Source of the DNA: a virus | DNA: 37,798 nucleotides | Strand: one strand, 5' to 3' | Virus genome (UHGV): UHGV-1315295 | Shown: positions 185-31,088 of the stretch, piece after piece | How the letters are laid out: each line of letters opens with the position of its first letter | Numbering within the stretch: the first letter of the stretch is position 1 | Position numbers and translations under genes: made by a program | Notes under the pieces: model-generated | Database searches by the model: none | Told to the model about the DNA's origin: nothing | The model's input: only the letters and a program-made list of their open reading frames with translations

Positions 185-1348
185 ATGTTCACGGTAAATC
201 ATCAAACCAACAGGATTAGTCCTGTTAGGACAAAGAAGTTCAGTGAGTTGGGCTTTACTGAGCGCAAGCATCTTCAGGAGTGGTTGGCACACGAACCTTC
301 CGCACTCGGTGAAGAGTTGTTGATTATTCAAAAAGAGTTCGATGGCTTTGATGACACCCGTGAACGCTTAGATTTACTGGCACTGGATAAAGATGGCAAC
401 TTGGTCATTATTGAAAACAATCTGGACGACAGTGGCCGCGATGTGGTGTGGCAGGCGCTTAAATATGCCTCCTACTGCGCAAGTTTAACCAAAGCGCAAA
501 TCGTTGAAATTTACCAGCAGTACTTAGACCGCTATGAGCCTGTAACAGGAGAGGTTGACTTGTTTAATACCCCTGCAAGTGCCTCTGCTAGAATATGTGA
601 GTTTTTGGATGCGCCCGATCTCGATGAGTTAAAGCTCAACCTGGGTAACAGCCAGCGCATTATGTTAGTTGCGGCAAACTTTCGCAAAGAAGTGACCAGC
701 ACCGCGCTGTGGTTATTGGGTCAAGGCATTAGCATTGCCTGCTTCAAAATCACGCCTTATTCACTGGGTGAACAGCTACTGATTAATATTGACCAGATCA
801 TTCCAACGCCAGAAGCGAAAGAGTTGATGATCGGCATTAATGCCAAGGAAGCGGAAGAAAAAACCACCGAAGTGGTACTAAAAAACCGCCATACCGTGCG
901 TCGCGAGTACTGGGAGCGTGCCTTAGAGGCGTTTCAGAAAAGCTCTTGCCAACTCTATAACAACATTAGCCCAAGCAAAGATCATTGGTTATCAGCAGGC
1001 TCAGGGCTAAGTGGATGTCCGTATAACCTGATATTTCTGCAAAAAGAGCTTCGAGTAGAGCTTTGGATCAGCCGTGGGGTTACCGAAGAGAATAAATACC
1101 TTTTTGATTTGTTGAGTCAGTCCAAACAAGACATTGAGCATACTTTTGGTGCAGAACTTGAGTGGATGAGGCTGGATGAGAAGAAATCTTGCCGTATCCA
1201 GTTTTCGACCAAAGCTGACGGGTTTAACAAAGAGACTTGGCCCCAAGCGGTTGCGTGGCACTTAGAGCAGATGACAAAGTTAGAAAAAGCCTTAAAAGGA
1301 CCGCTGCAAAAAGCGGCTGAGGCAATGAAACAGAAGAATTTTGATTAA
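185..1348 (+). CDS. Hypothetical 387-aa protein embedded between hsdS and hsdR; N-terminal restriction-endonuclease-like (PD-(D/E)xK-type) motif, C-terminal region unknown
   Basis: ORF track; AGGA 7 nt upstream of ATG 185; motif ELLIIQKEFDGFDDTRERLDLLALDKDGNLVIIENN followed by VVWQALKYASYCA resembles NucS-type nuclease cores but with E-N-N where E-x-K is expected; no Walker A so not PrrC-like. Confidence 0.5.
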   Translation: MFTVNHQTNRISPVRTKKFSELGFTERKHLQEWLAHEPSALGEELLIIQKEFDGFDDTRERLDLLALDKDGNLVIIENNLDDSGRDVVWQALKYASYCASLTKAQIVEIYQQYLDRYEPVTGEVDLFNTPASASARICEFLDAPDLDELKLNLGNSQRIMLVAANFRKEVTSTALWLLGQGISIACFKITPYSLGEQLLINIDQIIPTPEAKELMIGINAKEAEEKTTEVVLKNRHTVRREYWERALEAFQKSSCQLYNNISPSKDHWLSAGSGLSGCPYNLIFLQKELRVELWISRGVTEENKYLFDLLSQSKQDIEHTFGAELEWMRLDEKKSCRIQFSTKADGFNKETWPQAVAWHLEQMTKLEKALKGPLQKAAEAMKQKNFD

Positions 1349-1362
1349 GGGAACTTACAATT

Positions 1363-4300
1363 ATGGTCAGTCAAACCAATGAACAAGCATTAGAGTCGGC
1401 CATTGAGAAATGTCTGGCTGGGATCAGTACTGAAGAGCTCAAAGAGGGGCTGAGTCAGCAGTCACTGGGTGCTGGATACTTCATTGGTGCTGCTAGTGAC
1501 TTTAATATGCAATATGCCATTGATGAACGTTTTTTCTGGCAATTTCTGCAAAAGACACAAGAAGTAGAGTTGGCCAAACTGCAAAAGAACAACCCCTCAG
1601 ATTGGCAACGTAAGTTACTCGAACGATTTGACCGACTGATTAAGAAGCATGGCATTCTTCATTTACTTAAGAAAGGGCTAAGCGTAGACGATGCTCATTT
1701 CAATTTGCTCTATCCAGCCCCTTTGGCAAGTAGTAGTGAGAAGGTAAAGCAAAACTTTGCAGATAACGTGTTTAGTTGTACTCGCCAAGTGCGCTATTCC
1801 ATGGTAAATCCCCTACAAGAAATCGACATGGTATTGTTTATCAACGGAATACCCTTGATAACGCTGGAGTTGAAGAACGCATGGACCGGGCAAACAGCAC
1901 GTTATCACGGCCAAAAGCAGTATCGAGATGATCGGGATGCAACTCAGCCATTGCTGACCTTTGGCCGCTGCCTAGTGCATATGGCGGTCGATACCGACGA
2001 AGTGTATATGACCACCAAGTTATCAGGTAGCAGTACATTCTTCTTGCCGTTCAATAAAGGTCACAATCTTGGACAAGGCAACCCGCCGAATCCATCTGGC
2101 CATAAAACGGCATACCTATGGCAAGAAGTATTCACTAAAGACAGCTTGGCGAATATTATTCAGCATTTTGTGCGTCTGGATGGGTCAAGCAAAGATCCAT
2201 TACCCAAGCGAACCCTGTTCTTTCCTCGATACCATCAATTGGATGTGGTGAGAAAATTAGTAGACCATGCCGCCCAGCACGGTGTCGGTCAGACTTACTT
2301 AATTCAACACTCAGCCGGTTCAGGTAAGTCTAACTCGATTACCTGGGCAGCTTATCAGCTAATTGAAACCTATCCTGCTTCGTCTGATGTGGCAGGCGGA
2401 AAAAGCTTGGAGCAGCCGTTGTTTGACTCTGTGATTGTGGTCACCGATAGACGCCTATTGGACAAGCAGCTGCGGGATAACATTAAAGAGTTTTCTGAAG
2501 TAAAGAACATTATTGCCCCAGCGAATAAGTCTTCTGAGCTTAAGCAGGCGCTGGAGAATGGCAAAAAGATTATTATAACGACGATTCAGAAATTCCCGTT
2601 CATTATTGATGGTATCGCCGATCTTAGTGACAAGCGCTTTGCAGTGATCATCGATGAAGCACACAGCTCACAGTCTGGTTCGGCGCATGACAATATGAAC
2701 CGAGCGATGGGCAAGTCTGAAGTCGAAGAGGCAGAAGATGCTCAGGATAAAATCCTTCAGGCGATGAGATCGCGTAAGATGCGCGGGAATGCGTCGTACC
2801 TGGCATTTACAGCGACACCAAAAAACAGCACTTTGGAGAAATTTGGTCAACGCCAAGAAGATGGCTCTTACAAGCCGTTTCACTTGTATTCGATGAAACA
2901 AGCCATTGAAGAAGGCTTCATCTTGGATGTGCTGGCAAATTATACGACGTACAAAAGTTATTATGAGATTGAGAAATCAATTGCTGATAACCCTGAGTTT
3001 GATACCAAAAAGGCGCAGAAAAAACTCAGAGCTTATGTAGAACGAAGCCAGCAAACAATTGATATCAAGGCAGAGATTATGCTGGAGCATTTTGTTCCGC
3101 ATGTCGTGAATACGAAAAAGCTCAAAGGTAAAGGTAAAGGAATGGTGGTCACTCAAAATATTGAGGCGGCCATTCGATACTACAAAGCGATAAGGCGAAT
3201 ACTTGAGGAGCAAGGAAACCCGTTTAAAGTTGCCATTGCTTTCTCAGGAACCAAAGAAGTTGATGGTATTGAATATACCGAAGCAGATATTAATGGTTTT
3301 GCCGAGTCAGATACCAAAGATATGTTTGATACCGATGAGTATCGACTTTTAGTGGTTGCTAACAAGTATCTGACTGGGTTTGACCAGCCTAAGCTTTGCG
3401 CCATGTATGTAGATAAGAAGCTCGCCAGTGTCTTGTGTGTTCAGGCGCTATCTAGGCTCAATCGCAGTGCACCTAAGCTAGGGAAGAAAACAGAAGACTT
3501 GTTTATCCTGGATTTTTTCAACTCGGTTGAAGATATTCAATCAGCATTCGATCCTTTCTATACAGCAACGTCATTGTCCCAAGCTACAGATATAAACGTA
3601 CTGCACGAGTTGAAAGATGAAATGGACGATGTCGGTGTGTACGAGTGGTATGAAGTTGAAGACTTTGTGACGCGTTATTTCAAGAATGAAGACGCCCAAA
3701 CACTCAGTCCAATCATTGATATTGCCGCAGCGCGGTTTGACCATGAACTAGATCTTGAAGCTGAAGCTAAAGTGGACTTTAAGATTAAAGCCAAACAGTT
3801 CGTTAAAATCTATGGGCAGATGGCTTCTATCATGCCTTATGAAATGGTCAGCTGGGAAAAACTGTTTTGGTTCCTGAAGTTTTTAATACCGAAATTGAAA
3901 GTGGAAGATCCCGATGCTAATGCTATTGATGAGCTTCTCGATTCTGTCGATCTGAGTTCATACGGTTTGCAACGTGTGAAGCTTAACCACAGCATTAAAC
4001 TTAGTGACCAAGAAGCGGAGCTTGATCCTCAAAATCCGAACCCACGTGGGGTGCATGGCGGTGAAAAAGAAACTGACCCGCTGGATGAAATCATTCGCAC
4101 ATTTAATGAGCGATGGTTCCAGGGCTGGAGTGCCACACCTGAAGAGCAAAAGGTTAAGTTCGTGAACATCGCTGAAAGTATCCGCAATCACCCTGACTTC
4201 GAATCGAAATACAAAAACAACCCAGATCCCCATAATCGAAATTTGGCCTTCGAAAAAATGCTCAAGGAAATCATGCTGCAACGCCGTAAAGATGAACTTG

Positions 4301-4380
4301 AGCTCTACAAGTTGTTCGCAGGAGATTCAGCATTTAAAGCCTCGTGGACGCAAAGTATGCAACGAATGGTGGGTAGGTAG
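1363..4380 (+). CDS. hsdR: Type I restriction enzyme R subunit (HsdR), DEAH-box helicase/nuclease
   Basis: 1005 aa; N-terminal nuclease motif [18 protein letters not shown]; Walker A GSGKSNS; DEAH box IIDEAHSS; size and order typical of HsdR. Confidence 0.9.
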
Positions 4381-4394
4381 AAAGGAGTGATGGT

Positions 4395-5080
<686 letters not shown>

Positions 5081-5260
5081 CCACTTCATCTACACTCGCG
5101 GCATTGGAAGCAAAGATATGGTCGTCTGGCACCTGATGCACATTGATAAGGCTATCAACCACACGCTGGAGAAGTTCTTTCCACCAGCCTGAACACAATG
5201 ATTGTGCGCCTTATAGCGCCCATTAAGATAGATAAGTACTTACCAATAAGGAGAAAACAC

Positions 5261-5536
5261 ATGAAGACTTTGGTTCGCATTTCATCTAGTACCGACTATG
5301 ACGTTTACCCGTTGTTCATGATCAAGTGCGACGGGCTGAACGATGAAGAAATTCAAGCGGCAATTGAACGCAATCTAGTTGAATACACAGGAATGGATGC
5401 GGATTCTATTTATATCGATGATGACGGTGTTTGTTGGCACAACGGTAGCTGCTGGTACGTCGACGACACAATGCTGGTAAGCGATGAAGACGCGGCCCAT
5501 CTTGAGCGCATTTTGGGTATCAGCACTTTTGAGTGA
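5261..5536 (+). CDS. Hypothetical small acidic protein (91 aa)
   Basis: ATG 5261 preceded by AGGAG; ORF track frame; start context AGGAGAAAACACATG shared with other genes in the window. Confidence 0.45.
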   Translation: MKTLVRISSSTDYDVYPLFMIKCDGLNDEEIQAAIERNLVEYTGMDADSIYIDDDGVCWHNGSCWYVDDTMLVSDEDAAHLERILGISTFE

Positions 5537-5751
5537 TATTTACAGCAAAAATATATAAGTTAGCATTTACCTATCATTAAAATTTTATTAGATATCACGT
5601 TACTTATTACCTCGATAGCCTTTGTGCTCGACTGCATCTTCACAGGGGCAATCCGTAAAGCGCTGGCGCCTGTTAATGATGTGATGATCAATGCGCTGGC
5701 CGTAGTACTGGTCTTCGACTCAGCATTAGGCGTTTTCAAAGGAGTCGTGGC

Positions 5752-6087
5752 ATGAAGAAAACAGCCCTGGTACTGGCGCTGCTCACTCTCCCCGTCTTTG
5801 CGGACACACATGTCTATGAGTGCGAAATGTTTGTGGTCGAAGCGAAAAACGGCCTGATCCGCAACGTCGTCAAAGCTAATTACGGCGCGATGGTTGTGGA
5901 CCGCGGCGAACAGTTTTATGTGGTACGCGATAATCGTGTCCTGTCTTCCCCGTTTCTCACTAAACGTAACGGCGAACTATCTGGCGTAGGTAAAGATAGG
6001 TTCGTTTACAACAAATCGGGTGATGTATACGGCGTTCACGCGAAGAACGACAGCTACCTTTTCGATGACTGCAAGGAGATTAGTTGA
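5752..6087 (+). CDS. Hypothetical secreted protein (predicted N-terminal signal peptide)
   Basis: MKKTALVLALLTLPVFA-DTH: charged N-terminus, hydrophobic core and A-x-A-like cleavage region; GGAG RBS. Confidence 0.5.
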   Translation: MKKTALVLALLTLPVFADTHVYECEMFVVEAKNGLIRNVVKANYGAMVVDRGEQFYVVRDNRVLSSPFLTKRNGELSGVGKDRFVYNKSGDVYGVHAKNDSYLFDDCKEIS

Positions 6088-6299
6088 TGGCGGTTACACT
6101 GACAGGTCTGGAAATCGAAAAAACAAGCGGCTACTGGCGTGCCAAAGGGTTCAAGCAGTCCGGCGTACTGGAACGACTGGAACGTGAAGATGGGTATATT
6201 GTTCACCAGCGACGTGAATGGCGCATGTACGATCCGGAAACAGGTAAGCTCGCAACGAAGGCCGGGACACTCTGGGGTCTGCTGAAGAAAATCCACTGA
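6084..6299 (+). CDS. Hypothetical protein (71 aa)
   Basis: ORF track; start overlaps the upstream stop, suggesting translational coupling with 5752-6087. Confidence 0.4.
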   Translation: MMAVTLTGLEIEKTSGYWRAKGFKQSGVLERLEREDGYIVHQRREWRMYDPETGKLATKAGTLWGLLKKIH

Positions 6300-6308
6300 T
6301 AACACTAT

Positions 6309-6946
6309 CCACTGCGGTGAGTAGCCAGCTCACCGCGTGTGAATCCGGCTCATAACCACTGTAGCGAGTAGAACACCCTTCAGGTATGCACCCCAACCAC
6401 TGTAGTGAGTAGAACACCATTCGGGTATGCACCCCAACCACTGTAGTGAGCAACCCCCCTGCCACGATATCAACTATCCACTGTAGTGAGTAAATTGGTG
6501 ATTATCGGGGTCGCTATACACTGTAGTGAGTAAACAGGCGTTCACTGACTACAAACAACCACTATAGAGAGTGATGGAATGCTCCCTCCAGCGGATATCC
6601 ACTATGGAGAGTAAATCTTCGCTGTTTTAAACGGATATCCACTCACTACAGTGGATAGAGGTCAAGTCAGCCAATTCTGCTCTTCACAGTGGATAGTCAA
6701 CAATGAGGAGAGCGACGATAACCGCTGTAGAGAGTAGACTTAACAGAGATACCCAGTGACCGCTAACCTCTCAGCCCTTGTTTTATCTATGTTTGCAACC
6801 ACTAACATTTACTTCGCGATTTGTGCGCACTGCCTACAGTGGTTATTCTTCGGTTTCTTTTACTCACTACAGTGGATATTGCATTTCCGATAAACAAAAA
6901 GGCTCACTACAGTAGATAGTGAGCCTTTTTACTCTCTACAGTGGTT
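6309..6946. repeat. Iteron array downstream of repA (incA-like copy-control locus): about 15 copies of CCACTGTAGTGAGTA-type repeat in both orientations
   Basis: Copies at 6309-6323, 6356-6370, 6397-6411, 6438-6452, 6478-6492, 6518-6532, 6559-6573, 6599-6613, 6722-6736 (forward) and 6641-6654, 6682-6696, 6834-6846, 6861-6878, 6903-6918, 6931-6946 (reverse); includes a 41-bp tandem duplication 6356-6396/6397-6437. Confidence 0.8.
6896..6930. terminator. Bidirectional hairpin terminator at the repA 3' end, incorporating an iteron
   Basis: AAAAA-AGGCTCACTA-cagtag-TAGTGAGCCT-TTTTT: 10-bp perfect stem with A-run and T-run on either side. Confidence 0.5.
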
Positions 6947-6949
6947 GGG

Positions 6950-8005
6950 CTATTTGCGAGCCTTTGCCTTGCGCAGCTCTTCGAGAATCGCCAGTTCTTC
7001 CTTGCTCAACATGACCATTTCCCCGTCTTTTTCTTCAGGGGCAACATCGATAATGTCCTCCGGATCATCACCTGGCAAGATATCTTCTGGCTCTTCAGGC
7101 GTAGCCATAGATGGCGGCAGTGCCGAACGTAACTTCGGCCGTCTATAGTGGATGACGAAGTAGACCGAGCTGCCGCGTTTCACTTCAGTGTAATCGAGAT
7201 AGCCGATCTCTCGCAGCTGCTCCATCGCCTTCCTGACTGTCGCATTCTGGGTAATGGTGCGGCTGGTTAAGTTAAGTCTGGCGCGTAAGCGAGCCAATGA
7301 GATTGGCGCCGGGTCTGGTGGCAAACTTTCAATGAAGGTGTAGAGCGCCTGCGCGGATTCTTTTCTGGAGAGTTCGTTGATGGCCCGAAGTTGCAAAAGC
7401 ACCTTTTTGTCGAACTGGTAAAGTTCGAAAATCTTAGGATCGGCCTTCAGTTCGACCGTGTCATTCTTGGTACTGTACTTTGCCGTCTGCACAAGGTGCG
7501 TAACGTAATACTCTTCAGAGCCTTTGCTGCGGAATGAGATGGTGTTTGTGGCGATACGACTTAGAGAGCTGTCCAGGCGCTTACGTAACTTCGCGGACGA
7601 TCTGGCTGTTGGTATGCCACAAAGTCTGACGAACTCGACGAACGGCAACGTGACGGTGTCACCAACAACCTTGTGCTTGGCGAACGCGTGGATGATGCCC
7701 ACCCATGTTTTGAAATCGTTATCCATATCAAGACGAAGACCAGCAATCCTTATATCCTCGTACCCTTCGGCTTTGGCCAGAGACAGCTGTTTGAGTTCAG
7801 CGGAGGCGTCCATAGAGACCATTTGCCCCTTTCTACCCCTGGATGTCGATTTCAGCGTCGGAACGAAGAGACCAAGACGCATCAGAGCAACAGGTTGAAC
7901 TGTGTTGTTGGTGTTAGGAACTAACGTAACAACTTCGCCGGTCTTTTTGTCTGTTTCGGAAAATGCTTCGCTTATCGCAATGTTTTTATTGTCGTTTACG
8001 CTCAT
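6950..8005 (-). CDS. repA: Replication initiator RepA (P1/IncY-type iteron-binding initiator)
   Basis: 351 aa; blocks [64 protein letters not shown] match my recollection of P1 RepA; flanked on both sides by iterons. Confidence 0.8.
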
Positions 8006-8048
8006 TCCAAATGTCTCTTTTTATTCGACGGCTTGGGTGCCTTTACTG

Positions 8049-8168
8049 ATTACAGTGGATAGTAGCACCCATCACAGTGGTTATCCTACCGCCTACAGCG
8101 GTTTTTCTACTCTCCATAGTGGTTGATTTACTCTCTATAGTGGTTGTTATTCTCACTATAGTGGATAT
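8049..8168. repeat. Iteron cluster 1 upstream of repA (origin/incC-like), 6 copies
   Basis: ACAGTGGATAG, CACAGTGGTTAT, CTACAGCGGTTTT, CTCCATAGTGGTTG, CTCTATAGTGGTTG, CACTATAGTGGATA; same family as the downstream iterons. Confidence 0.75.
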
Positions 8169-8214
8169 CGATAACCTCTAAAGCCATGTGGCACAACGGT
8201 TTGCAGGGGCCGGG

Positions 8215-8273
8215 GATCTCTTTGGGTCTTTGTGGTTCTCTTTGGTTCTAACAGGGATCTGAATTACTGGATC
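8215..8273. promoter_or_regulatory. GATC cluster 1 (3 Dam sites) adjacent to iteron cluster 1
   Basis: GATC at 8215, 8256, 8270 within GGGATCTC / GGGATCTG / GGATCGAG heptamer-like units. Confidence 0.4.
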
Positions 8274-8446
8274 GAGCCTGTGTATAAAAATCAGATAATT
8301 ACAAAATCAGGCATCACTCCCCTTCTGGGGATAATGTGTGATCGAAATAAACACGCCGCAACGCAAAATTTACAATATTTCCAAGAATATCAGCCATCTG
8401 CCGCAGAAAAACAGGCTCGGAGTTATCCAGTTAAAACATTGTCTCC

Positions 8447-8551
8447 TACTCACTACAGTGGATACCGACTACTCTCCAGAGAGGTTGTTTTGCTCTTCAT
8501 AGCGGTTATTATGCTCTCTACAGTGGTTATTTTGCTCCCTATAGTGGATAG
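8447..8551. repeat. Iteron cluster 2 (5 copies), a second origin-like module
   Basis: TACTCACTACAGTGGATA, CTCTTCATAGCGGTTAT, CTCTCTACAGTGGTTAT, CTCCCTATAGTGGATAG plus one degenerate copy. Confidence 0.7.
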
Positions 8552-8590
8552 TAACCCCTTCTCAAGCCAGTAACCGCAAGCGCTGGAGAC

Positions 8591-8648
8591 GATCGGGGAT
8601 CTCTTTTGATCTTCTGTAGGATCTCTCTGGGGATCTAAATATTGGATC
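8591..8648. promoter_or_regulatory. GATC cluster 2: six GATC sites in 58 bp
   Basis: GATC at 8591, 8598, 8608, 8620, 8632, 8645; the flank resembles the 8205-8280 segment (duplicated module). Confidence 0.5.
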
Positions 8649-8747
8649 GGACCTGTGAATAAAGTGAATAAGTAAACAGGCATTTGCAAACTCCGGTGCG
8701 CCTTATCCGTTATCGTTGCCCCGGACAAAATTATTTGAACAAGAATT

Positions 8748-9392
8748 ATGGATCTTAAACGCACGCGCTGGGTTCGCCGTCTTGAAGATGGCTCCTACAC
8801 CATTGAATCAAACACTAGTCTGAACAAACTGAAGTTGCTCTGCGACCTTTGCGGCATTGCTTCGAAATGCCCGATTAACGAAACCCGGCTTAAACTCCAC
8901 GACGCCGGTGCGCATTTCCACCTAAACAGCTGCATACGTTACGTGCCACTACTAGCATTTCGTAAACCGATCATCGGATTGGATGCTCCCTACTTCAACA
9001 CACTGCGCTCTGGTGTCACTTGGCGAGATCGTGTCGAACCTGGCAAACTCGTTTGTCTGGTTGAAGCTGATACCGGAAATATCATCCGGTTCGGGAGAGT
9101 TGATAAGGTCTACTCAGGCCCGGTGGATGAAATGCTGCGGAAACACAGCCGATTTAACCATCTCTGCATGGGCGGAGAGAAGATTGAGAAGGTTGGCGAA
9201 GTAATTCGCAAATCTTACGGACACTTTCTGAATGATAACAGCCTTCTGACAGCCATTTACATTCGCCATGTCGATCGGGAGTTCGACACGGAGTATCACA
9301 GTGTTGAAGAGTTGAATCTTGTAGACCCTCGTCCAAAAGCTGGGGTAATAGACATCAGCAGAGCGCGTCAGAAGCCCTCAGAGACGTTTTAA
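8748..9392 (+). CDS. Hypothetical protein (214 aa)
   Basis: ORF track; first gene after the origin-like region. Confidence 0.5.
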   Translation: MDLKRTRWVRRLEDGSYTIESNTSLNKLKLLCDLCGIASKCPINETRLKLHDAGAHFHLNSCIRYVPLLAFRKPIIGLDAPYFNTLRSGVTWRDRVEPGKLVCLVEADTGNIIRFGRVDKVYSGPVDEMLRKHSRFNHLCMGGEKIEKVGEVIRKSYGHFLNDNSLLTAIYIRHVDREFDTEYHSVEELNLVDPRPKAGVIDISRARQKPSETF

Positions 9393-9788
9393 AGGCAAAC
9401 TCATGCTTTTTACCGGGCATAAAATATGGTGTCTTAGAAAGACACTGAGAGCTTTAGGGATTAATGCATGAGTGAATTTTATTCAAGAGCAGAAACTGTG
9501 GCCGACGGATGCGTTTGAAGACGACGCACGCAAACGCCGTAGATGTCATCTCACAACTTCACCGTCCGTTCTCCTTTTTCATTTCTTGTCATCAGTAAAT
9601 GACTGCTCTCATAAAATTGCTTGTGACGTTTAGAAATCGTTGCTGCCCTATCTGATAGGTATTTACTTACTTATTTTTTTGTCATTATCATGTGCCTTTA
9701 TATTCTTTTGTGTTCCGTGTTGTCTGGGTTGTATGCCTCTTATGCACGCTTAGAATTTGTATCAAAATAACCACAAAGGAAAAGACAC

Positions 9789-10874
9789 ATGACATTGCCA
9801 TACGGGGTAATATCAGATCCCCATTATCATCGTTGGGATGCTTTTGCGACAACAAACGCTGACGGGCTTAACTCTCGGCTGGAGATCCAACTGGACGCTA
9901 CGAAGGAGGCGGCCAAAGCGATGAAAGCTGCTGGCTGTAAGCACATGCTGGTAGCTGGTGATACCTTCCATGTTCGCGGTGCTATATCACCTTCCGTTCT
10001 GCATTTCGTGACCGAAACTTACGAGTGGATCATCAAAGAGTTGGGTCTCAAGGTGGTAATGCTGGCTGGCAACCACGACCTCGAAACCAACAATTCCGTA
10101 TACAGCGCCAATGCAGCAGCCTCTCTGCGCTCAATCGGTGTGGAAATCGTCTGCGGCAAACGTCCTCATTCCATCAAAATGGGCGACGTAACCGTCCATC
10201 TGATTAGCTGGCGTAATAACCACGCAGAACTTATCAGCGATCTCAAAACGCTGCGTTCCGGGCTGGATGGTGACAACCATGATGTTGTTGTACATACCTC
10301 AATCAACAAAGCGATCCCCACCATGCCCGATGTCGGCATCGACGCACAGGAACTGAAAGATATCGGCTTCCGTTTATTGTTGTCCGGGCACTACCACAAC
10401 CACAAAGAAGTGCTGCCTGGAGTGGTAAGTATCGGGGCGCTGACACACCAGAATTGGGGGGATGTTGGTTCACTGGCCGGCTTCATGATCGTCAAACCGG
10501 ACGGCTCATTCACTCACCACGAAACCTCGGCACCTAAATTCGTGAACCTTGAGGACGATGTAGATGACGATCAGATTCGCGGCAACTACGTGCGCTTCCG
10601 TGCCGTTGTTGAGAGCGATGAAGAAGGCATCAAACTTCAGAACGTCCTGAAAACAATGGGCGCGAAGGGTGTCGTCTGCAACTTCATTCGCAAGGCATCG
10701 ATGATGGAAGGCGCTGCCAGTACTGCGGAAACCAGCAAAATTGACAGCCTGGGCGAGTCCGTTGCGGCGTACTGCAAGATCGTTCACGACACTGACGGTG
10801 GCTTCGACCTGAGCAAGCTGGACATACTGTGTCAGGAGATCTTGACCGAAGCAGAGAGTGCGGAGGCTGTGTGA
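9789..10874 (+). CDS. sbcD: SbcD/Mre11-family metallophosphoesterase nuclease
   Basis: Motifs DPHYH, GDTFH, GNHD, GHYH typical of calcineurin-like phosphoesterase nucleases; immediately upstream of an SbcC/Rad50-like ATPase. Confidence 0.75.
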   Translation: MTLPYGVISDPHYHRWDAFATTNADGLNSRLEIQLDATKEAAKAMKAAGCKHMLVAGDTFHVRGAISPSVLHFVTETYEWIIKELGLKVVMLAGNHDLETNNSVYSANAAASLRSIGVEIVCGKRPHSIKMGDVTVHLISWRNNHAELISDLKTLRSGLDGDNHDVVVHTSINKAIPTMPDVGIDAQELKDIGFRLLLSGHYHNHKEVLPGVVSIGALTHQNWGDVGSLAGFMIVKPDGSFTHHETSAPKFVNLEDDVDDDQIRGNYVRFRAVVESDEEGIKLQNVLKTMGAKGVVCNFIRKASMMEGAASTAETSKIDSLGESVAAYCKIVHDTDGGFDLSKLDILCQEILTEAESAEAV

Positions 10875-10915
10875 GGCAACGTTATTATGGGAGCTTTCGA
10901 GAGTTTGCCATCGTG

Positions 10916-11107
10916 ATGAAAAAACTTCAAAAAGGCCAGACGGTTATGTTTCACAAGCCATACCCTTCAGGAGGAAATCCCGTAGCGTTTTATCTTGGAA
11001 GGCTAACCAGAAAAGGCTTATTGAATCGCAGATCCTTCCCCGCGCATACGGAGTTCAGATTGAAAGATGGTCAAAAGTTAACACACGATATCAGAGGTGT
11101 TATATGA
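10916..11107 (+). CDS. Possible small protein (63 aa) in the sbcD-sbcC gap, stop overlapping the sbcC start
   Basis: ATG 10916 in frame with track ORF 10829-11107; TGA 11105-11107 overlaps ATG 11104; weak RBS. Confidence 0.25.
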   Translation: MKKLQKGQTVMFHKPYPSGGNPVAFYLGRLTRKGLLNRRSFPAHTEFRLKDGQKLTHDIRGVI

Positions 11108-13020
11108 AGTTTTTAAAGCTCCAGGTTGAAAATTTTATGGCAATCGCCAGCGCAGAAGTCGAGTTAGACCAGCGTGGACTGGTGCTGATCCAGGGTGTGA
11201 ACAGTGGCGATACGTCTGCTGCCAGCAATGGCGCCGGGAAATCCACTCTGATGAATAGCTTAATGTGGTGTCTGTATGGTGAGACTGCACATGGCGTCAA
11301 AGGCGATGATGTGCTGTCGACGGGCCATGAGAAGAACTGCCGTGTGATGGTTACAGTTGAAGACGAAGGTAAGAAATACGCGATCATTCGCCATCGTAAA
11401 CACAAAGAGTTCAAGAACCGACTAATCGTCCGTGGTGAAGACGGTGATATGACCAAAGGCAAGGACACGCTGACACAGACGTTCGTAGAACGTCTGATTG
11501 GGGCATCGAAAGAGGTGTTCATGGCGTCCATCTACGCCAGTCAGGAAGCGATGCCAGATCTGCCCGGTATGTCCGACAAGAGCCTCAAAACCATCGTTGA
11601 AGAAGCTGCTGGCGTCGACCGATTGACGCGAGCCTATGCCATTGCCCGCGAGCGTGCTAATGCAGCTGCCGCACGTATGGACGTTACCAAATCCAAAATG
11701 GACGCCTGTCTCACGCTTATCGAGACTGCACAGTCAGAGATTGAGGCGGCCAAAGCGTCCTCTGAAAGCTGGGAGCGCGATCGCGGCGAGCGTCTGGACA
11801 AGGCCCGAGCCGATTTGGCTGGCGCGGAGGTAACACTGTCTGAAGTCGAGATGGAAATTCGCTCGCTGCCGGAACAGATCCGTGATACGGAAAACGCGAT
11901 TGCTGGCGAACGCAGCAAGCTGGCCTCCAAAGAAGAGCATGACGCCAAACTGCTGAAGGTGCGCAGTGCTATTACTGAGATCCACTCAAGCATCCGTACT
12001 TCAGAAGCGGCACAGAACGAGTCGATAAACCGTGCTCGCTCGTTTAAAACCAAAGCTGAAGAGGTCAGCACAAAGATCGGGGCACCCTGCATTACGTGCG
12101 GAAAGCCCTACTGCGAAGAAGATTTATCCACGGTGAAGGAGAGCTTCATTGAACAAGCGCGCAATGAGATCGGCCTTGCGCAGACATCAGCAGCGGCAGT
12201 GGCTCAACACAAGGCTCGTCTTGAGAAAGCGCTCGGTATCGAGTCTGCACTGGTCGCAGCCACACCCGACGTCTCAGAAATCATCTCCACAATAGAACGC
12301 CTGACCAATGAGCTAAGTGCGCTGCGTCATCGCGAACGTGAAGTTGTGGCCGTCGAAGCGATGGTTGCGCGGGCGCGTACTGAAGTGAATCGCATCATGG
12401 CGGAAGCAAACCCATTTCTGGCCGTTATTAAGCGCCATGAAGACAACCTGGCTGCCAATAAATCTAATCATGCAGTACTTAAAAATGAGTTAAAGAGCAT
12501 TCAGGAACAGGCTCTGTTGCTGGAGAAGGCCCGCCAGGTTTACTCCCCAGCAGGCGTGCGTTCACACATCCTGACCTCCGTTACGCCTTTCCTGAACATC
12601 AGGACTGCGGAGTATCTCAACACGCTGTCGGACGGCAATATCGTTGCCGAATGGTCGACAATGGAGACAACGAAGAAAGGTGAGTATCGCGACAAATTCA
12701 ATATCAGCGTAATCAAAACAGGCTCCAGCAAATCCTTCCAGACTTTGTCTGGTGGTGAGAAGCGTAAGGTACGTATTGCGTGCTCTCTGGCTTTGCAGGA
12801 TCTGGTTGCCAGTCGCGCCAGTAAGAATATCGAGCTATTTATCGGTGATGAAATTGACGACGCGCTCGACACAGCCGGTCTGGAGCGTCTCATGGGGATT
12901 CTGGAAGCCAAAGCGCGTGAACGTGGCACAGTGATGATCATCTCCCACAAAGAGATGAAATCGTGGTTCCGGGAAATTATCACTGTCGAAGTTAAAGAGG
13001 GGCGCAGCTATGTCGTTTAA
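11104..13020 (+). CDS. sbcC: SbcC/Rad50-family ATPase with zinc-hook CxxC
   Basis: Start MKFLKLQVENF with GAGGTG RBS; Walker A GAGKST; CITCGKPYC hook near 12086-12112; ABC signature LSGGEKRK; Walker B LFIGDEIDD. The track start 10858 gives an implausible N-terminal extension. Confidence 0.75.
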   Translation: MKFLKLQVENFMAIASAEVELDQRGLVLIQGVNSGDTSAASNGAGKSTLMNSLMWCLYGETAHGVKGDDVLSTGHEKNCRVMVTVEDEGKKYAIIRHRKHKEFKNRLIVRGEDGDMTKGKDTLTQTFVERLIGASKEVFMASIYASQEAMPDLPGMSDKSLKTIVEEAAGVDRLTRAYAIARERANAAAARMDVTKSKMDACLTLIETAQSEIEAAKASSESWERDRGERLDKARADLAGAEVTLSEVEMEIRSLPEQIRDTENAIAGERSKLASKEEHDAKLLKVRSAITEIHSSIRTSEAAQNESINRARSFKTKAEEVSTKIGAPCITCGKPYCEEDLSTVKESFIEQARNEIGLAQTSAAAVAQHKARLEKALGIESALVAATPDVSEIISTIERLTNELSALRHREREVVAVEAMVARARTEVNRIMAEANPFLAVIKRHEDNLAANKSNHAVLKNELKSIQEQALLLEKARQVYSPAGVRSHILTSVTPFLNIRTAEYLNTLSDGNIVAEWSTMETTKKGEYRDKFNISVIKTGSSKSFQTLSGGEKRKVRIACSLALQDLVASRASKNIELFIGDEIDDALDTAGLERLMGILEAKARERGTVMIISHKEMKSWFREIITVEVKEGRSYVV

Positions 13021-13756
13021 CTTGAGCCGCACGCAGTTTTTGCAGATGTTTGCCGTGATGCAGTCTATAAAGCTGATAAACAACCATACAGCAAAAGTAA
13101 CTCCGCCTGCACTTTTGTGGAAAAACGTAAACATCAGCGACGACCAGTTCTCGGTATTAACTAATCTATTGTCATCGACTCCTTTGATGCCGAGCTTGGC
13201 TAATCTGCCGTCAGGAAGCACTGCGCCGATCCTTATTAATCCATTTACGGAAGGTGGATATCTCCCACATTCTGGGCCGGGGTTCGTTGTGATTCCTGAA
13301 ACCGGAACGCTGAACATCCAAGAAAATGCACTCTTCAATGCAATGGAGACGCACATCAGCACCGCATTCACTAATCTAATTCGACACGCTAACGCACGCG
13401 CGGATCACGTTGCAATGCCGGGTGCTGCCTTCGCCAGCTTCTCTGTTGACTATGACCGGCACGCGCCAATTTCAAAGCGGGCGAAACTCTGCTTTTACGA
13501 GGAGGGATGTGAAGTAGCGATTATTGAAGTTCTCCTCCCCCACGTATTCAACGCGAATGAAAAGGCTGCGTGCCAACTTATTGACATCATGCGGCATTTC
13601 ATCGGCCAGAGCATGATCGATGCAGACATTGCTGCAGGCGTTCTGATCAACGATAGCATTCACGTTGTTAGCGACATTCCGAAGCCGCCAACTCGCGAGC
13701 CGGAGAAGACACTTGAACAGAAACTAATGGAATGCCCAACCTGGGCTACGTGGTAA
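13010..13756 (+). CDS. Hypothetical protein (248 aa)
   Basis: ORF track; GAGGGG RBS; start overlaps the sbcC stop. Confidence 0.5.
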   Translation: MSFNLSRTQFLQMFAVMQSIKLINNHTAKVTPPALLWKNVNISDDQFSVLTNLLSSTPLMPSLANLPSGSTAPILINPFTEGGYLPHSGPGFVVIPETGTLNIQENALFNAMETHISTAFTNLIRHANARADHVAMPGAAFASFSVDYDRHAPISKRAKLCFYEEGCEVAIIEVLLPHVFNANEKAACQLIDIMRHFIGQSMIDADIAAGVLINDSIHVVSDIPKPPTREPEKTLEQKLMECPTWATW

Positions 13757-13767
13757 GGAGACCAAAA

Positions 13768-14508
13768 GTGAGAGGAAGAGCGACAAAATTAAGAAAAGAT
13801 GCGAAACCTATCAATCCCGACGATTTCGACGGAAATTTCATTAGAGAGTTGGAGCCAATATTTGATTCAAGGGGGCGTAAACGCCGAATTGTTGAGCTTG
13901 AATGCTTTATCTGCGGTCATCGATTCTCTGCAAACCTTGAGAACGCGAAGCGAGTCAGACAGAAGACCTGCTCAAACAAATGTGCCGGAATATATCGCCA
14001 GAACGCAGAATATAAAGTCATGGAAAACCCTCTGTACTGGACTTGGGCAAGTATGAAGGCGCGTTGTAACAATCCAAATCGGGCAAGATACGAAAAGTAT
14101 GGAGGACGGGGAATATCTTACGCCATCGGGTTCGAGGATTTTGATAATTTTTACAGGTATGTTTCCGTACTTGAGGGCTATCCGTTTTCCGATACGGAGA
14201 GAGTTGTAGAGGGGGTTACGCTTGATCGCATCGACTCCAGCAAGGGATATGAACCAGGGAATCTGAGGTGGGCTGACAAGCACGTCCAGAGTGCAAATAA
14301 ACAAGGGAAAGTGGATGGTAGTACGTCGAAGTTTACTGGCGTTCATTACTGCAAAACGAACAAGGTTTGGGTTGCTAGAGTTGTGTGGAAAGGAGAGTGT
14401 GTCTTCTTGTATCAATGTCACGATGAATTGGAGGCTTACTTAGCGCGTAAGCGATTTATCGAAGAGCACAATCTACCGCATTTTGTTGAAATGGAGGTCA
14501 CAGAGTGA
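13768..14508 (+). CDS. HNH homing endonuclease with AP2-like C-terminal DNA-binding domain
   Basis: HNH-type block VTLDRIDSSKGYEPGNLRWADKHVQSANK; C-terminal GVHYCKTNKVWVARVVWKGE resembles AP2 domains of phage HNH endonucleases; GTG 13768 has a consensus AAGGAG 7 nt upstream (track start 13732 is an alternative). Confidence 0.55.
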   Translation: MRGRATKLRKDAKPINPDDFDGNFIRELEPIFDSRGRKRRIVELECFICGHRFSANLENAKRVRQKTCSNKCAGIYRQNAEYKVMENPLYWTWASMKARCNNPNRARYEKYGGRGISYAIGFEDFDNFYRYVSVLEGYPFSDTERVVEGVTLDRIDSSKGYEPGNLRWADKHVQSANKQGKVDGSTSKFTGVHYCKTNKVWVARVVWKGECVFLYQCHDELEAYLARKRFIEEHNLPHFVEMEVTE

Positions 14509-17916: not shown

Positions 17917-18389
17917 AGATGATTGCAGCTGTCGGCCGCAACTATGAAATCGGCATTGGCAACGAACTTCCCTGGCGTTGCCCGACCGATCTGAAACTGT
18001 TCAAACAACTCACCAAAAACGCCACTGTCGTGATGGGACGTAAGACGATGGAAAGTCTTAAACGCCCGCTGCCAGAGCGCCATAACCTCGTTTTGACGCG
18101 CTCTCGTGGCTATATCCCCAATGGTTTCTACCCCGCTGGCATCGATGACGTTTTAAAACTACCAGATCCGGTCTGGGTGATTGGTGGCGGACAGATTTAC
18201 TCGCTCTTTATGCCACACGTTGAAGAGATCTGGCTGTCGCATATTGGCGTGGATGTGTCGGGCGCGGATGCGTTCTTCCCGGCGCCAATGATGCGTTCTT
18301 TAGGGTTCGTACCAGTAGAAACGGCTTATACCCAACGTGCAAATGAGGATGAGCCTGGCTTTTTGCAGATCGTATACAGAAGGTCGTAA
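17913..18389 (+). CDS. folA: Dihydrofolate reductase
   Basis: MKMIAAVGRNYEIGIGNELPWR...VVMGRKTMESLKRPLPERHNLVLTR...VIGGGQIY matches the DHFR fold signature; ATGA overlap with the upstream gene. Confidence 0.85.
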   Translation: MKMIAAVGRNYEIGIGNELPWRCPTDLKLFKQLTKNATVVMGRKTMESLKRPLPERHNLVLTRSRGYIPNGFYPAGIDDVLKLPDPVWVIGGGQIYSLFMPHVEEIWLSHIGVDVSGADAFFPAPMMRSLGFVPVETAYTQRANEDEPGFLQIVYRRS

Positions 18390-19060
18390 TGGATTACCGG
18401 ATTGGAATCACTGGCGCACAGGGCAGTGGGAAAACAACCCTGGCAAGGTACATCGATGCGCACTATGGCATTCCGTATGTGGATGCTGGTGTAGGCAAGC
18501 TGATGAGCAGTCTGGGGGTGAAGGTTGGCGAGCGTTTGCCCCTTTACGAGCGTCTTCAGGTTCAGATGGAGATTGCCAGACACATCGAGATGATCACCCG
18601 CGGCGTTGAAGGTTTTGTCATCGACCGCACGCCAGCCGATGTCATGGCTTATACGCTTGACCTGGTCGGCCAGACCAACGAAGACCGCTGCATCGAGCTG
18701 GCTCTCGACATTGAGCAGTTTTGCCACAAAGCGGCCATTTCCAACTTTAATGCTATAGCGGGTCTTCGCCCGGGCGTTGAGCTTTCCAGCAAAGATCTCG
18801 CGCGTCCCCAGCGAGGATCGCTTGACCGTCTCTATGTTGCTCGCATCGATGCACTTATGTGTGGCGAGCTGACGAAAATTAGCGCCCTTCCCCATACCGG
18901 CGATTTGCAGGTTTTCATTATCTCTGAAAAGTGCCGCACGGTTGAGGCGCGAGCCAGATCGGTATTGCGTGTGCTGGAAAGAGCCACTGAAAACATCGAG
19001 AGCCGTATAACAGGACGAGTGACCTTCCACAGAATGTTGTTCCCCTGTTGGGCAGTGTGA
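18389..19060 (+). CDS. P-loop NTPase, putative nucleoside/nucleotide kinase
   Basis: Walker A ITGAQGSGKTTLA at the N-terminus; TAATG overlap with folA; nucleotide-metabolism operon context. Confidence 0.5.
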   Translation: MDYRIGITGAQGSGKTTLARYIDAHYGIPYVDAGVGKLMSSLGVKVGERLPLYERLQVQMEIARHIEMITRGVEGFVIDRTPADVMAYTLDLVGQTNEDRCIELALDIEQFCHKAAISNFNAIAGLRPGVELSSKDLARPQRGSLDRLYVARIDALMCGELTKISALPHTGDLQVFIISEKCRTVEARARSVLRVLERATENIESRITGRVTFHRMLFPCWAV

Positions 19061-29023: not shown

Positions 29024-29722
29024 ATGAAAAATATCCTACTGGCATCATTGTTGGTGGCATCGCCGGCTGTATTTGCAGCCAGCTTTGACTGCCAAAAGGC
29101 TTCGGCAGAAATCGAACACAAAATCTGCGATAACGAACGCCTGTCAAAATTAGACGAACAACTTAGCTCTACCTATTCCAACGCACTCAAAGCAAACCCG
29201 GGGGACGCAGACGCCTTAAAGACGGTTCAGCGTCAATGGGTAAGTATGCGTGGAAAACTCACTGGTGATAAGGCTCTGGAGCTGGCTTATCTAATCCAAA
29301 TTAATGGCCTCAAGAGTTTGGATGGTTCGGCCAGCACTGCGGTGGTCAATGAGACACCAAAGCCTGTGCAGAAACAGCCTGAAGTTCAGGAAAAGACAAG
29401 CAAGGCAGACACAAAGCAGGCTGAGAGCGGTAAAAAGCTAACTCTGGAGTCATTCCGAGCTAAGTATATTGAAGTTGACGGTGAATACTACAGCACGACA
29501 TCCCTTCCCAGAGGGAGTTCGTTCTTGTTCACCTGCGCAAGTCGTATCGCAGATGACCAGGTGAATATTTGGAAGAAGGTGGCAGCCAAAGAGGGCAAGA
29601 TCGATCTCTTCTTTGAACTTGAGAATCGAATACATACCGCAATGCTGAATGCCAATTTTCAGAAGCTAAATAGTGATTTAACTAAAACAGGCATTTGCGA
29701 TCTGATTACTGCTGTTCCGTAA
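29024..29722 (+). CDS. Secreted protein with LprI/DUF1311-like N-terminal domain
   Basis: Signal peptide MKNILLASLLVASPAVFA; FDCQKASAEIEHKICDNERLSKLDEQLSSTY resembles the DUF1311 (lysozyme-inhibitor LprI-like) signature. Confidence 0.55.
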   Translation: MKNILLASLLVASPAVFAASFDCQKASAEIEHKICDNERLSKLDEQLSSTYSNALKANPGDADALKTVQRQWVSMRGKLTGDKALELAYLIQINGLKSLDGSASTAVVNETPKPVQKQPEVQEKTSKADTKQAESGKKLTLESFRAKYIEVDGEYYSTTSLPRGSSFLFTCASRIADDQVNIWKKVAAKEGKIDLFFELENRIHTAMLNANFQKLNSDLTKTGICDLITAVP

Positions 29723-30167
29723 GCCAGATAAGGCCACTATTTGTGGCCTTAAACAATTTGTTTAATTAGTGGTGTAATTATTGGAATCCCAGGCGAACTA
29801 AATCCATTGGGCAGAACAGATCTTCCACACCTTCGATAGACACGCAGTCAGAGCGGCGTAATTGTTCTTCTGATTTGCCTTCCCCACTGATTTCTCTGAT
29901 TACTCCCGTTGCGCCATTCATTGCCACCATGACATGGCTGCCGATAGTGATAGCATTACGGTTTCGATCATACGTCTTTATCGTTTTCTCCTTTCACATG
30001 GGGCAAATCAGGTTTCAAAAATTGCCGTTTTCCATGTATATGCGATTTGCAAAATATCAATTTCCTAAACAAATTGTTTTCACCAGCTAGTTATTACACA
30101 CAGGCGAAGTTGACCGCGCTTCATATAAATATCACTGTTTATACATACAGTGTATAAGAGGAAAAAA

Positions 30168-30434: not shown

Positions 30435-30519
30435 TCATCCCTTAAACATCTTGTTTTCTGCCTTTTGTTATTTGAGATAATAACAACAATTAGAAAACAA
30501 GTTGTTTAAGGAATCATCC

Positions 30520-30756
30520 ATGTTTGGAACCGCAAAAGAGCTTATCGAAAAGCTGGAGAACTACCCAGAAGACGAGCCGCTGCTGATGGTTGTGTGGCAT
30601 AAGGAAGACGTAGGCGAAGTACGCCCAGACCTTACTGACTATCAGTGCGCCCAGGTCTTGCGCAGAATCAAAGAGTGTCATGATGCCAATATCGGCGTGA
30701 ATTGGGACGTTATCTCTGACACGGCCGACATCCTGTTTCCGAAGGAGAAGGCATGA
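30520..30756 (+). CDS. Hypothetical small acidic protein (78 aa)
   Basis: ATG 30520 with AAGGA RBS immediately after the palindrome at 30493-30509. Confidence 0.45.
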   Translation: MFGTAKELIEKLENYPEDEPLLMVVWHKEDVGEVRPDLTDYQCAQVLRRIKECHDANIGVNWDVISDTADILFPKEKA

Positions 30757-31073
30757 TGCTGATATTGAAAGAATCCTATAAGACCGCAGTGATCAGCACC
30801 GCCCATGTCACGGCCAAAGACTCCGAGCTGCTGCCTGTCGTGTGCTTTGACCCGTTGACCGATCGCGGGTTGAATTGGGTACATGGTACACAGTACGGCT
30901 GGATTGTTCGTGCTGGAATGCGAGGGAATGACTGGAAAGAAGAGCTGCGTGAGTATGGCATTTCCGAAGAGACGATCTCCAACATACAGACCATAGTGGA
31001 TGCCGGGTATGATTCGGTACAATTTGACTGTGATGCGGAGCTGGTGGATGGGATGCCAGCATGGGATTGGTAG
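30753..31073 (+). CDS. Hypothetical protein (106 aa)
   Basis: ATGA overlap with the upstream gene. Confidence 0.45.
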   Translation: MMLILKESYKTAVISTAHVTAKDSELLPVVCFDPLTDRGLNWVHGTQYGWIVRAGMRGNDWKEELREYGISEETISNIQTIVDAGYDSVQFDCDAELVDGMPAWDW

Positions 31074-31088
31074 ATATAGCTACTAGCA

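Follow-up and report, generated by a model that had tools for sequence, protein, structure and literature searches.

The subject of this analysis is a viral DNA of 37,798 nucleotides, the UHGV virus genome UHGV-1315295 (this whole stretch is called the window below), and within it a replicon built around a repA gene of the P1 type. A preliminary description, made from the letters alone, had pointed out that no parAB operon adjoins this repA, and had concluded that partition functions must lie elsewhere on the replicon or be replaced by another stability mechanism. Judged by sequence, the window is part of a phage-plasmid of the SSU5/pHCM2 type, and the complete relatives of this element, which carry a small parA gene far away from repA, suggest where the partition function of such replicons may reside.

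The replicon of the window

The replicon is made up of the following elements (positions in the window; aa, amino acids; ORF, open reading frame).

6303-6949, downstream of repA: incA-like control array of 16 iterons in mixed orientation, nine on the minus strand and seven on the plus strand (repeat search and core scan)
6950-8005, minus strand: repA, encoding a Rep_3 initiator of the P1/RepFIB family, 351 aa (ORF, Pfam, BLAST, and phrog_775 at 1.6e-146)
8035-8170: incC-like origin iterons next to repA, lying upstream of the gene and about 30 bp away from its start (repeat search and core scan)
8211-8291: proximal origin module, with GATC at 8215, 8256 and 8270 and a perfect DnaA box, TTATACACA, at 8279-8287 on the minus strand
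8438-8553: distal origin iterons, which repeat the proximal module in direct orientation and diverged form, with a spacing of 383 bp (repeat search and core scan)
8591-8662: distal origin module, with six GATC sites in 58 bp (8591-8648) and a perfect DnaA box, TTATTCACA, at 8654-8662 on the minus strand

The product of 6950-8005 is a P1-type RepA, predicted from its sequence to be an iteron-binding initiator. It is 46-48% identical to P1 RepA (E values of 2e-71 to 2e-75), 47.5% identical to P7 RepA, and much closer to the RepA proteins of SSU5 (93%) and Cyrano (91%). In Pfam, Rep3_N is matched above the cut-off (2.4e-11), and the match to Rep3_C (4.9e-4) is marginal, its 20.7 bits falling just below the cut-off of 21.1 bits.

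A scan of the whole window with the iteron core CTCACTACAGTGGATA, allowing up to four mismatches, returned 24 matches, 23 of which lie in three blocks flanking repA (16 in 6306-6947, four in 8046-8167 and three in 8449-8550); the other roughly 35 kb contain a single match, which is at chance level. GATC occurs on average 4.2 times per kb across the window, and both DnaA boxes match TTWTNCACA. Along the repA strand, the order is thus distal origin module, proximal origin module, repA and the 650-bp iteron array. Origin iterons upstream of repA, a second array downstream, DnaA boxes and GATC clusters are the layout of P1/RepFIB-type replicons, and the window therefore carries, on the strength of its sequence, an iteron replicon of this family with two tandem oriR-like modules, for which replication activity is predicted. 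By homology with P1, RepA bound to the origin iterons would start replication, and the downstream array would cap the copy number through titration and handcuffing. The tandem duplication of the origin is likely conserved in the family, because the gap between repA and the next gene is about 745 bp in the window, in SSU5 and in pMT1 alike.

The relatives of the window place this replicon in a well-populated family. Over their full length, positions 5500-9500 share 89.6% identity with Salmonella phage SSU5; with the Escherichia coli plasmid NZ_CP010244.1 (113,250 bp; typed IncFIB, non-mobilizable) they share 99.5%, and they matched 493 plasmid records in total. NZ_CP010244.1 covers the window nearly end to end, from about 31,400 in the record through the record origin to about 105,460, and the top match of 13000-37798 is CP099103.1 at 98.9% identity. 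Megablast searches against the collections of plasmids and of complete E. coli genomes returned relatives at 98-99.5% identity only, none of them identical. The replicons of the relatives, about 100-115 kb in size, combine siphovirus head, tail, terminase and lysis genes with plasmid functions; their MOB-suite replicon type is IncFIB, and the replicon type of the family is IncFIB(pHCM2). Synteny and high identity to SSU5/pHCM2-type replicons thus place the window in the SSU5 supergroup of phage-plasmids, which also takes in pHCM2 of Salmonella Typhi and pMT1 (PMC7969092).

Search for partition genes in the window and in its relatives

ParA, ParB, ParM and parS-like elements are absent throughout the 37.8-kb window. 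With the ParA and ParB annotated in P1 as queries, the best tblastn match in the window had an E value of 2.9. The positive controls were found (pMT1 ParA at 9e-155, pMT1 ParB at 2e-71 and the RepA of the window at 2e-75), and the searches were therefore sensitive enough. Six proteins (P1 ParA, P1 ParB, the small ParA of SSU5-type elements described below, its partner, a ParB_N protein and an ABC ATPase) were also compared by phmmer with the --max option with all 472 six-frame ORFs of the window of at least 40 aa, and yielded noise only. The deviant Walker A motif (KGGxxK[ST]) does not occur in any frame of the window, the comparison of about 50 window ORFs with Pfam or PHROGs gave no CbiA/AAA_31/ParA, ParB_N, ParM/StbA, TubZ or toxin-antitoxin family, and a scan of the window found neither a sequence resembling the parS of P1 or pMT1 nor a cluster of box A and box B. 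Two ATPase genes of the window were considered as parA candidates and rejected: 18389-19060 (223 aa, 'AAA family ATPase') is nucleotide-kinase-like (AAA_28/AAA_17) and has a classical Walker A motif, and 10858-13020 encodes an SbcC-like ATPase. The preliminary description was thus right that a P1-type repA stands here without adjoining parAB.

The replicon-wide search for ParA and ParB homologues that the preliminary description had proposed was run on the relatives. A type Ia system with a P1-like ParA of about 400 aa was not found in the window, in NZ_CP010244.1 or in bases 1-100000 of SSU5 by tblastn (for the window also by phmmer), and the same holds for homologues of P1 ParB; CP099103.1, judged from its record annotation only, has no P1-type ParA or ParB either. 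The search did find a small, ParF-like ParA with a partner gene, at the following positions.

NZ_CP010244.1, 68,827-69,492 (L002:23828-24493): small ParA of 221 aa, with the gene of a 117-aa partner 5 bp downstream
NZ_CP010244.1, L002:24494-24610: conserved non-coding block of about 100 bp upstream of the small parA, containing the palindrome AAACAAGTTGTTT
CP099103.1: small ParA at 44,694-45,359; repA at 1-1056
SSU5: ParA-like SSU5_033 at 30,497-31,162; RepA at 59,428-60,492
Cyrano: ParA (CYRAN_28) at 29,307-29,975; RepA at about 60,636-61,688

In NZ_CP010244.1, the pair adjoins a DUF1778/GNAT toxin-antitoxin pair and lysis genes, and lies about 37 kb from the left end and about 36 kb from the right end of the window. 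The distance between repA and the small parA is 29-45 kb in the complete relatives examined (43-45 kb in NZ_CP010244.1 and CP099103.1, where the pair is about 35 kb or more away from both ends of the window, and 29-31 kb in SSU5 and Cyrano). Every complete relative examined carries either such a remote small ParA pair or, in the case of pMT1, a parAB pair of the P1/P7 type, which bears out the earlier conclusion that partition is located elsewhere or replaced.

The family of the small ATPase is clear. It carries the deviant Walker A motif GGTKGGPGKST, matches AAA_31, MipZ, CbiA and ParA in Pfam, ParA_partition (NF041546) in NCBIfam (3.7e-34, positions 1-202 of 203) and phrog_164, 'ParA-like partition protein' (9e-53), and its closest solved relative is ParF of TP228 (4dzz, 5u1g; E value of 5e-12, residues 3-200 against 2-190). 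A length of about 200-220 aa, a deviant Walker A motif and the lack of an N-terminal DNA-binding domain are the marks of a type Ib ATPase, and the small ParA has all three. GenBank and RefSeq records already label it as ParA family or ParA-like partition protein.

The 117-aa partner belongs to a family confined to SSU5-like elements (32 clusters). Its conservation is uneven: an invariant N-terminal MGDLAKR is followed by a variable linker, an invariant segment P.R.P..PQGRPTRGK..I.SRTMS.EDE and an invariant RSDVIRAAI helix. In the AlphaFold monomer, residues 1-47 form a disordered, basic N-terminus, which is followed by four helices. A ribbon-helix-helix fold is plausible from the sequence, and the protein is a putative centromere-binding adaptor. 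The homologue in Cyrano, CYRAN_29 (L015:4169-4528), is 95% identical to the partner and follows directly after the ParA gene CYRAN_28. Its transcription was 9-fold over the prophage median in a lysogenic culture of E. coli LF82 (PMC9928086), and since it is transcribed in the lysogen, the parA-partner operon is active in the plasmid state. The same study lists CYRAN_29 as a moron with the annotation 'RelE/ParE putative toxin' (PMC9928086). No match to ParE or RelE was found for the partner family in Pfam or NCBIfam, and the label is probably a misannotation.

The non-coding DNA upstream of the small parA is more strongly conserved than the genes. In an alignment of six relatives, a 74-bp core is 95-99% identical where the coding sequence of parA and partner is only 80-94% identical, as exemplified by Klebsiella pneumoniae (72 of 74 positions against 80.4% in the coding sequence) and Cronobacter (71 of 74 against 89.8%). 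The core is shared by elements of E. coli, Salmonella, Enterobacter, Cronobacter and Klebsiella, the homology ends about 112 bp out, and the genes beyond differ among the relatives. This conservation pattern makes the block of about 100 bp a candidate operator/centromere.

Taken together, these results indicate that partition is probably supplied by a remote type Ib-like module, and that this replicon family is uncoupled from an adjoining par operon. Placed 29-45 kb from repA and beside lysis genes, the module would act in trans as an active partition system, composed of the 221-aa ParF-like ATPase, the 117-aa adaptor and the upstream block as candidate operator and centromere. Phd/Doc and DUF1778/GNAT toxin-antitoxin pairs and a tyrosine recombinase, which the relatives also carry, would add post-segregational killing and multimer resolution, respectively.

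It should be noted that several observations weigh against this interpretation. The location of par for the window's own replicon is deduced from synteny in the relatives, on which the module would be expected to be present there too. The small ParA scores 118 bits, below the NCBIfam equivalog cut-off of 180. The DNA-binding fold of the partner is putative: its monomer model is mediocre (pLDDT of 66.7), and a monomer is unable to form the sheet of a ribbon-helix-helix protein. The score of the partner against the ribbon-helix-helix family aCcr1 is 21 bits, far below the curated cut-off of 60, and searches for it with Foldseek (against the PDB), with phmmer and with a profile of the PDB returned no informative match. 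No centromere repeat array was found beside the remote parA, only short two-copy matches and terminator-like hairpins (those downstream of the partner gene are unrelated), and a simple sigma-70 scan returned no consensus promoter for the small parA. A search of the literature yielded no experimental report on the SSU5-type ParA module.

That no centromere repeats were identified would also fit elements that have no active partition at all. Cells of E. coli LF82 contain about 5.5 copies of Cyrano each (PMC9928086), and about five copies, killing by the toxin-antitoxin pairs and multimer resolution by the tyrosine recombinase might suffice for stable inheritance. The ParA-like gene would then serve phage development or interference with the host, and some ParA-like genes of virulent phages are indeed thought to have roles other than partition (Pfeifer et al., PMC7969092). 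This explanation is nevertheless highly improbable. By our own estimate, random segregation of about 5-11 copies at division would lead to a loss of about 1e-3 per generation. The ATPase is a full-length ParF-type protein with an intact deviant Walker A motif and a tightly linked partner, and it is kept at 80-98% identity over 466 plasmid records with different RepA types. In addition, the partner gene is expressed in the lysogen, and pMT1, the sole lineage that lacks the small module, has a replacement parABS.

The case of pMT1 (Yersinia pestis CO92) deserves attention. The surroundings of its repA are those of the window (645-bp gene, origin, repA, iteron array and small ORFs, with no adjoining par), and both the small ParA and the partner (the module at L002:23469-24493 in NZ_CP010244.1) are missing. 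Instead, a ParA (401 aa, 57% identical to that of P1) and a ParB (323 aa, 45%) of the P1/P7 type are encoded at 67,988-70,161 (L008:17988-20161), at a distance of about 20 kb from repA. The accessory region around them also contains a toxin-antitoxin pair, resolvase and phospholipase D genes and caf1, and has a copy of IS100 on one side. The original description of this parABS of the P1/P7 family is said to be that of Youngren et al. in 2000 (J Bacteriol 182:3924). The parS/ParB of pMT1 works as a centromere pair and is routinely employed as a fluorescent tag (PMC6667618). Most simply, the small ParA module and the P1/P7-type parABS would be functionally interchangeable in the SSU5 family.

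In megablast searches, the parA-partner module was found in 466 plasmid records (241 from Escherichia, 90 from Enterobacter, 47 from Salmonella, 43 from Klebsiella, the rest from others, and none from Yersinia), and the repA of the window in 338, including 63 from Yersinia. In PhiR41_1, CMS-2020a and several Klebsiella phages, RepA is only 48-50% identical to that of the window but the small ParA still 84-93%, and therefore rep and par modules assort independently. The lack of par beside a P1-type repA is thus no anomaly, because rep and par are unlinked and evolve independently in this family.

ParB_N genes and a dispersed palindrome

The preliminary description had named a parAB operon within a few kb outside the window as the finding that would speak against it. 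Such an operon was not found in the relatives, and the only genes that come close are those with a ParB_N domain, 3-4 kb off the right end. Their set starts about 4.2 kb (NZ_CP010244.1) or about 3.2 kb (CP099103.1) past that end, and is laid out as follows.

NZ_CP010244.1, L003:6584-7282 and L003:5916-6584, minus strand: two tandem ParB_N genes, followed by the gene of a 212-aa ABC-type ATPase
NZ_CP010244.1, L003:5281-7282: extent of the whole ParB_N/ABC set
pMT1, L007:30072-32073: extent of the corresponding set

Together with three small genes, the two ParB_N-only genes and the ABC-type ATPase gene make up a conserved operon, which continues into the terminase genes. If the ParB_N pair and the ABC-type ATPase constituted a partition system, the finding that parAB is missing beside this repA would come close to refutation by the criterion set for it. 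The genes do match ParB_N (7.7e-9) and TIGR00180 (2e-12), PHROGs label them 'ParB-like partition protein', SSU5_125 is annotated in the same way, the set is kept in SSU5, pMT1, NZ_CP010244.1 and CP099103.1, and a surveillance study (10.1101/2025.09.12.675607) uses parB as a marker for SSU5. However, there is very little chance that they act in partition. The matches cover only the N-terminal ParB/Srx domain (residues ~20-95), neither a helix-turn-helix nor a dimerisation domain was detected in these proteins, the remainder of which is acidic, and the matches in the same PHROG include ParB-like nucleases and methyltransferase fusions. No ParA-type ATPase lies beside the genes, and their position at the head of an operon that leads into terminase and portal genes looks like a packaging or late-gene context. 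The fact that pMT1 has retained the ParB_N/ABC set in addition to a full P7-type parABS suggests that the set is insufficient for partition.

A second element that may bear on partition lies within the window itself. The 13-bp palindrome AAACAA-N-TTGTTT, with at most one mismatch in the arms, is present in 13 copies between 24332 and 35684 (24332, 25303, 26025, 29751, 30067, 30444, 30495, 32059, 33141, 33519, 34010, 34908 and 35672), against 0.1-0.9 expected. All 13 copies are intergenic or lie 20-90 bp upstream of plus-strand ORFs. SSU5 has about 20 palindromes, with pairs upstream of a terS-like gene and single copies upstream of dnaB-like and cobT-like operons; pMT1 has six, and none was found in the rep-par region of P1. 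The conserved block that precedes the remote parA also contains a copy (L002:24529; 30449 in SSU5). On sequence grounds the palindrome is probably a genome-wide operator.

Which protein reads this operator is relevant to the location of partition sites. It could be a master regulator of the phage, by analogy with C1 of P1, a master regulator that acts on scattered operators; a site of the ParA partner is less likely. Dual regulators and centromere binders with dispersed sites exist as well, such as KorB with OB in RK2, omega of pSM19035 and SopB with sopC in N15. The dispersed-site system of N15 is cited in PMC11652158. If the 117-aa partner were a protein of this kind, a global regulator and centromere-binding protein in one, the window would itself hold cis-acting sites for partition. 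The excess of promoter-proximal sites and the copy inside the ultra-conserved block upstream of parA would fit such a role, as would the predicted DNA-reading segment of the partner, KSRTMS.EDE, which is invariant among homologues that are just 50% identical overall; moreover, the parA-partner operon is transcribed in lysogens, and its palindrome is therefore no tight operator of a lysogeny repressor. Nevertheless, binding by the partner is rather unlikely. A master regulator of the phage would account for operators dispersed ahead of numerous operons, early and late, among them the terS-like, dnaB-like and cobT-like ones; pMT1 keeps its six palindromes although it lacks the partner gene; and both the fold of the partner and its binding to the palindrome are putative. 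The retention of the palindromes in pMT1 was considered as a test of the identity of the binder and set aside as not decisive, as pMT1 is reportedly very young in evolutionary terms. Should the partner indeed bind the palindrome, the SSU5 family would possess a type Ib ATPase with a new family of adaptors that double as global regulators.

Flanking genes and comparison with known systems

The replicon is flanked by conserved genes on both sides.

5198-6299, plus strand: three small conserved ORFs beyond the iteron array (5198-5536, 5752-6087 and 6084-6299)
8748-9392, plus strand: conserved gene beside the origin, 214 aa, phrog_2105 (a function-unknown PHROG)

The three small ORFs have no match in Pfam or NCBIfam and belong to phrog_2209, phrog_2077 and phrog_804, all of which are function-unknown; the statement of the preliminary description that the plus-strand ORFs at 5752-6299 are of unknown function is thus confirmed. 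Their counterparts sit at the same position in SSU5 and pMT1. For the gene at 8748-9392, which had been described as an unrelated hypothetical, only part of that description holds: it is unrelated to partition, but it is not featureless. It has no match in Pfam or NCBIfam. Its AlphaFold model, built with 18 homologues, has a low overall pLDDT of 54.6, with 60-84 in the core (~residues 68-175). In a Foldseek search against the PDB, the top 16 matches were all of the ASCH type (EF3133, PH0355, YqfB and ZmASCH among them), with E values of 1.6e-4 to 6e-2, and the Cyrano homologue is annotated 'ASCH RNA-binding domain containing protein', in agreement with these matches. The modelled core thus has an ASCH/PUA-like fold.

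Further from the replicon, the window contains several variable segments. A variable defence slot lies to the left of the small ORFs (185-4380), and holds a type I restriction-modification (R-M) system with hsdR and a DUF4268 gene in the window and in NZ_CP010244.1. In CP099103.1, the same slot (L014:3213-12241) is filled by SNF2, DUF4391, methyltransferase and helicase genes. Two adjoining ORFs (4395-5080) with the integrase-core domains rve and rve_3, situated between hsdR and the conserved small ORFs, look like the remnant of an IS3-family transposase; the equivalent stretch carries no annotation in NZ_CP010244.1. An ORF for an HNH endonuclease (13732-14508; phrog_374, 1.8e-34), about 420 bp of which (13768-14185) have no counterpart in NZ_CP010244.1, is likely a homing-endonuclease insertion between a phrog_2117 gene and a RuvC-like resolvase gene.

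These segments exemplify the only differences from the closest relatives. SSU5, pHCM2, Cyrano/pLF82 and related E. coli plasmids have the same gene order around repA as the window (small ORFs, iteron array, repA, double origin, 645-bp gene and SbcCD-like genes), and accessory content alone differs, the type I R-M hsdR, the IS3 remnant and the HNH insertion of the window being variable. A repA neighbourhood without par is thus the normal and already known architecture of phage-plasmids of the SSU5/pHCM2/pMT1 type. The expectation of the preliminary description that par should follow incA reflects a pattern of P1 only, as pMT1, SSU5 and all IncFIB(pHCM2)-type relatives share the par-less neighbourhood. 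For the annotation of such elements, the lesson is that replication and partition modules are unlinked, with a small ParA shared at 84-93% where RepA is about 50% identical. Some potential for novelty exists only in the dispersed palindrome and in the ParF-like ATPase with the ORFan encoded next to it, most of which lies outside the window. Because elements of the SSU5 type are common among clinical Enterobacteriaceae and bear resistance genes, the partition mechanism of these elements is of interest.

The comparison with better-known systems summarizes what is shared and what is not. The dispersed palindrome resembles the sites of KorB, omega and N15 SopB in being scattered promoter-proximally across the element, including the par promoter region; unlike the KorB system, no ParB-HTH protein of the KorB type is present, and a master regulator of the phage is at least as likely a binder. 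The remote module resembles the type Ib system ParF/ParG of TP228, in that the ATPase (221 against 206 aa) aligns end to end with ParF, including the deviant Walker A motif, and that the gene right behind it is small and codes for a protein with a flexible basic N-terminus. It differs from the TP228 system in that neither sequence nor fold comparisons matched the partner to ParG or to any solved ribbon-helix-helix protein, that no array of tetramer-box repeats like parH was found, and that the module lies wholly outside the window.

With pMT1, the window shares the same repA, and the par-less repA neighbourhood and the ParB_N and ABC genes by the terminase are likewise common to the family; unlike the close relatives of the window, pMT1 has a type Ia ParA/ParB and no small ParA module. 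With P1, the replicon has in common the plan oriR/incC, repA, incA, with one or more DnaA boxes, a GATC cluster and iterons at a spacing of 19-21 bp that overlap the repA promoter region. It deviates from P1 in its longer RepA (351 against 286 aa, with surplus residues at both ends), in the tandem duplication of the origin module, and in a downstream array of 16 iterons in both orientations, compared to nine co-oriented iterons in P1. Most importantly for the present question, the downstream array of P1 is followed by parA, parB and parS, whereas these are found neither after the downstream array of the window, nor elsewhere in it, nor in the complete relative NZ_CP010244.1.

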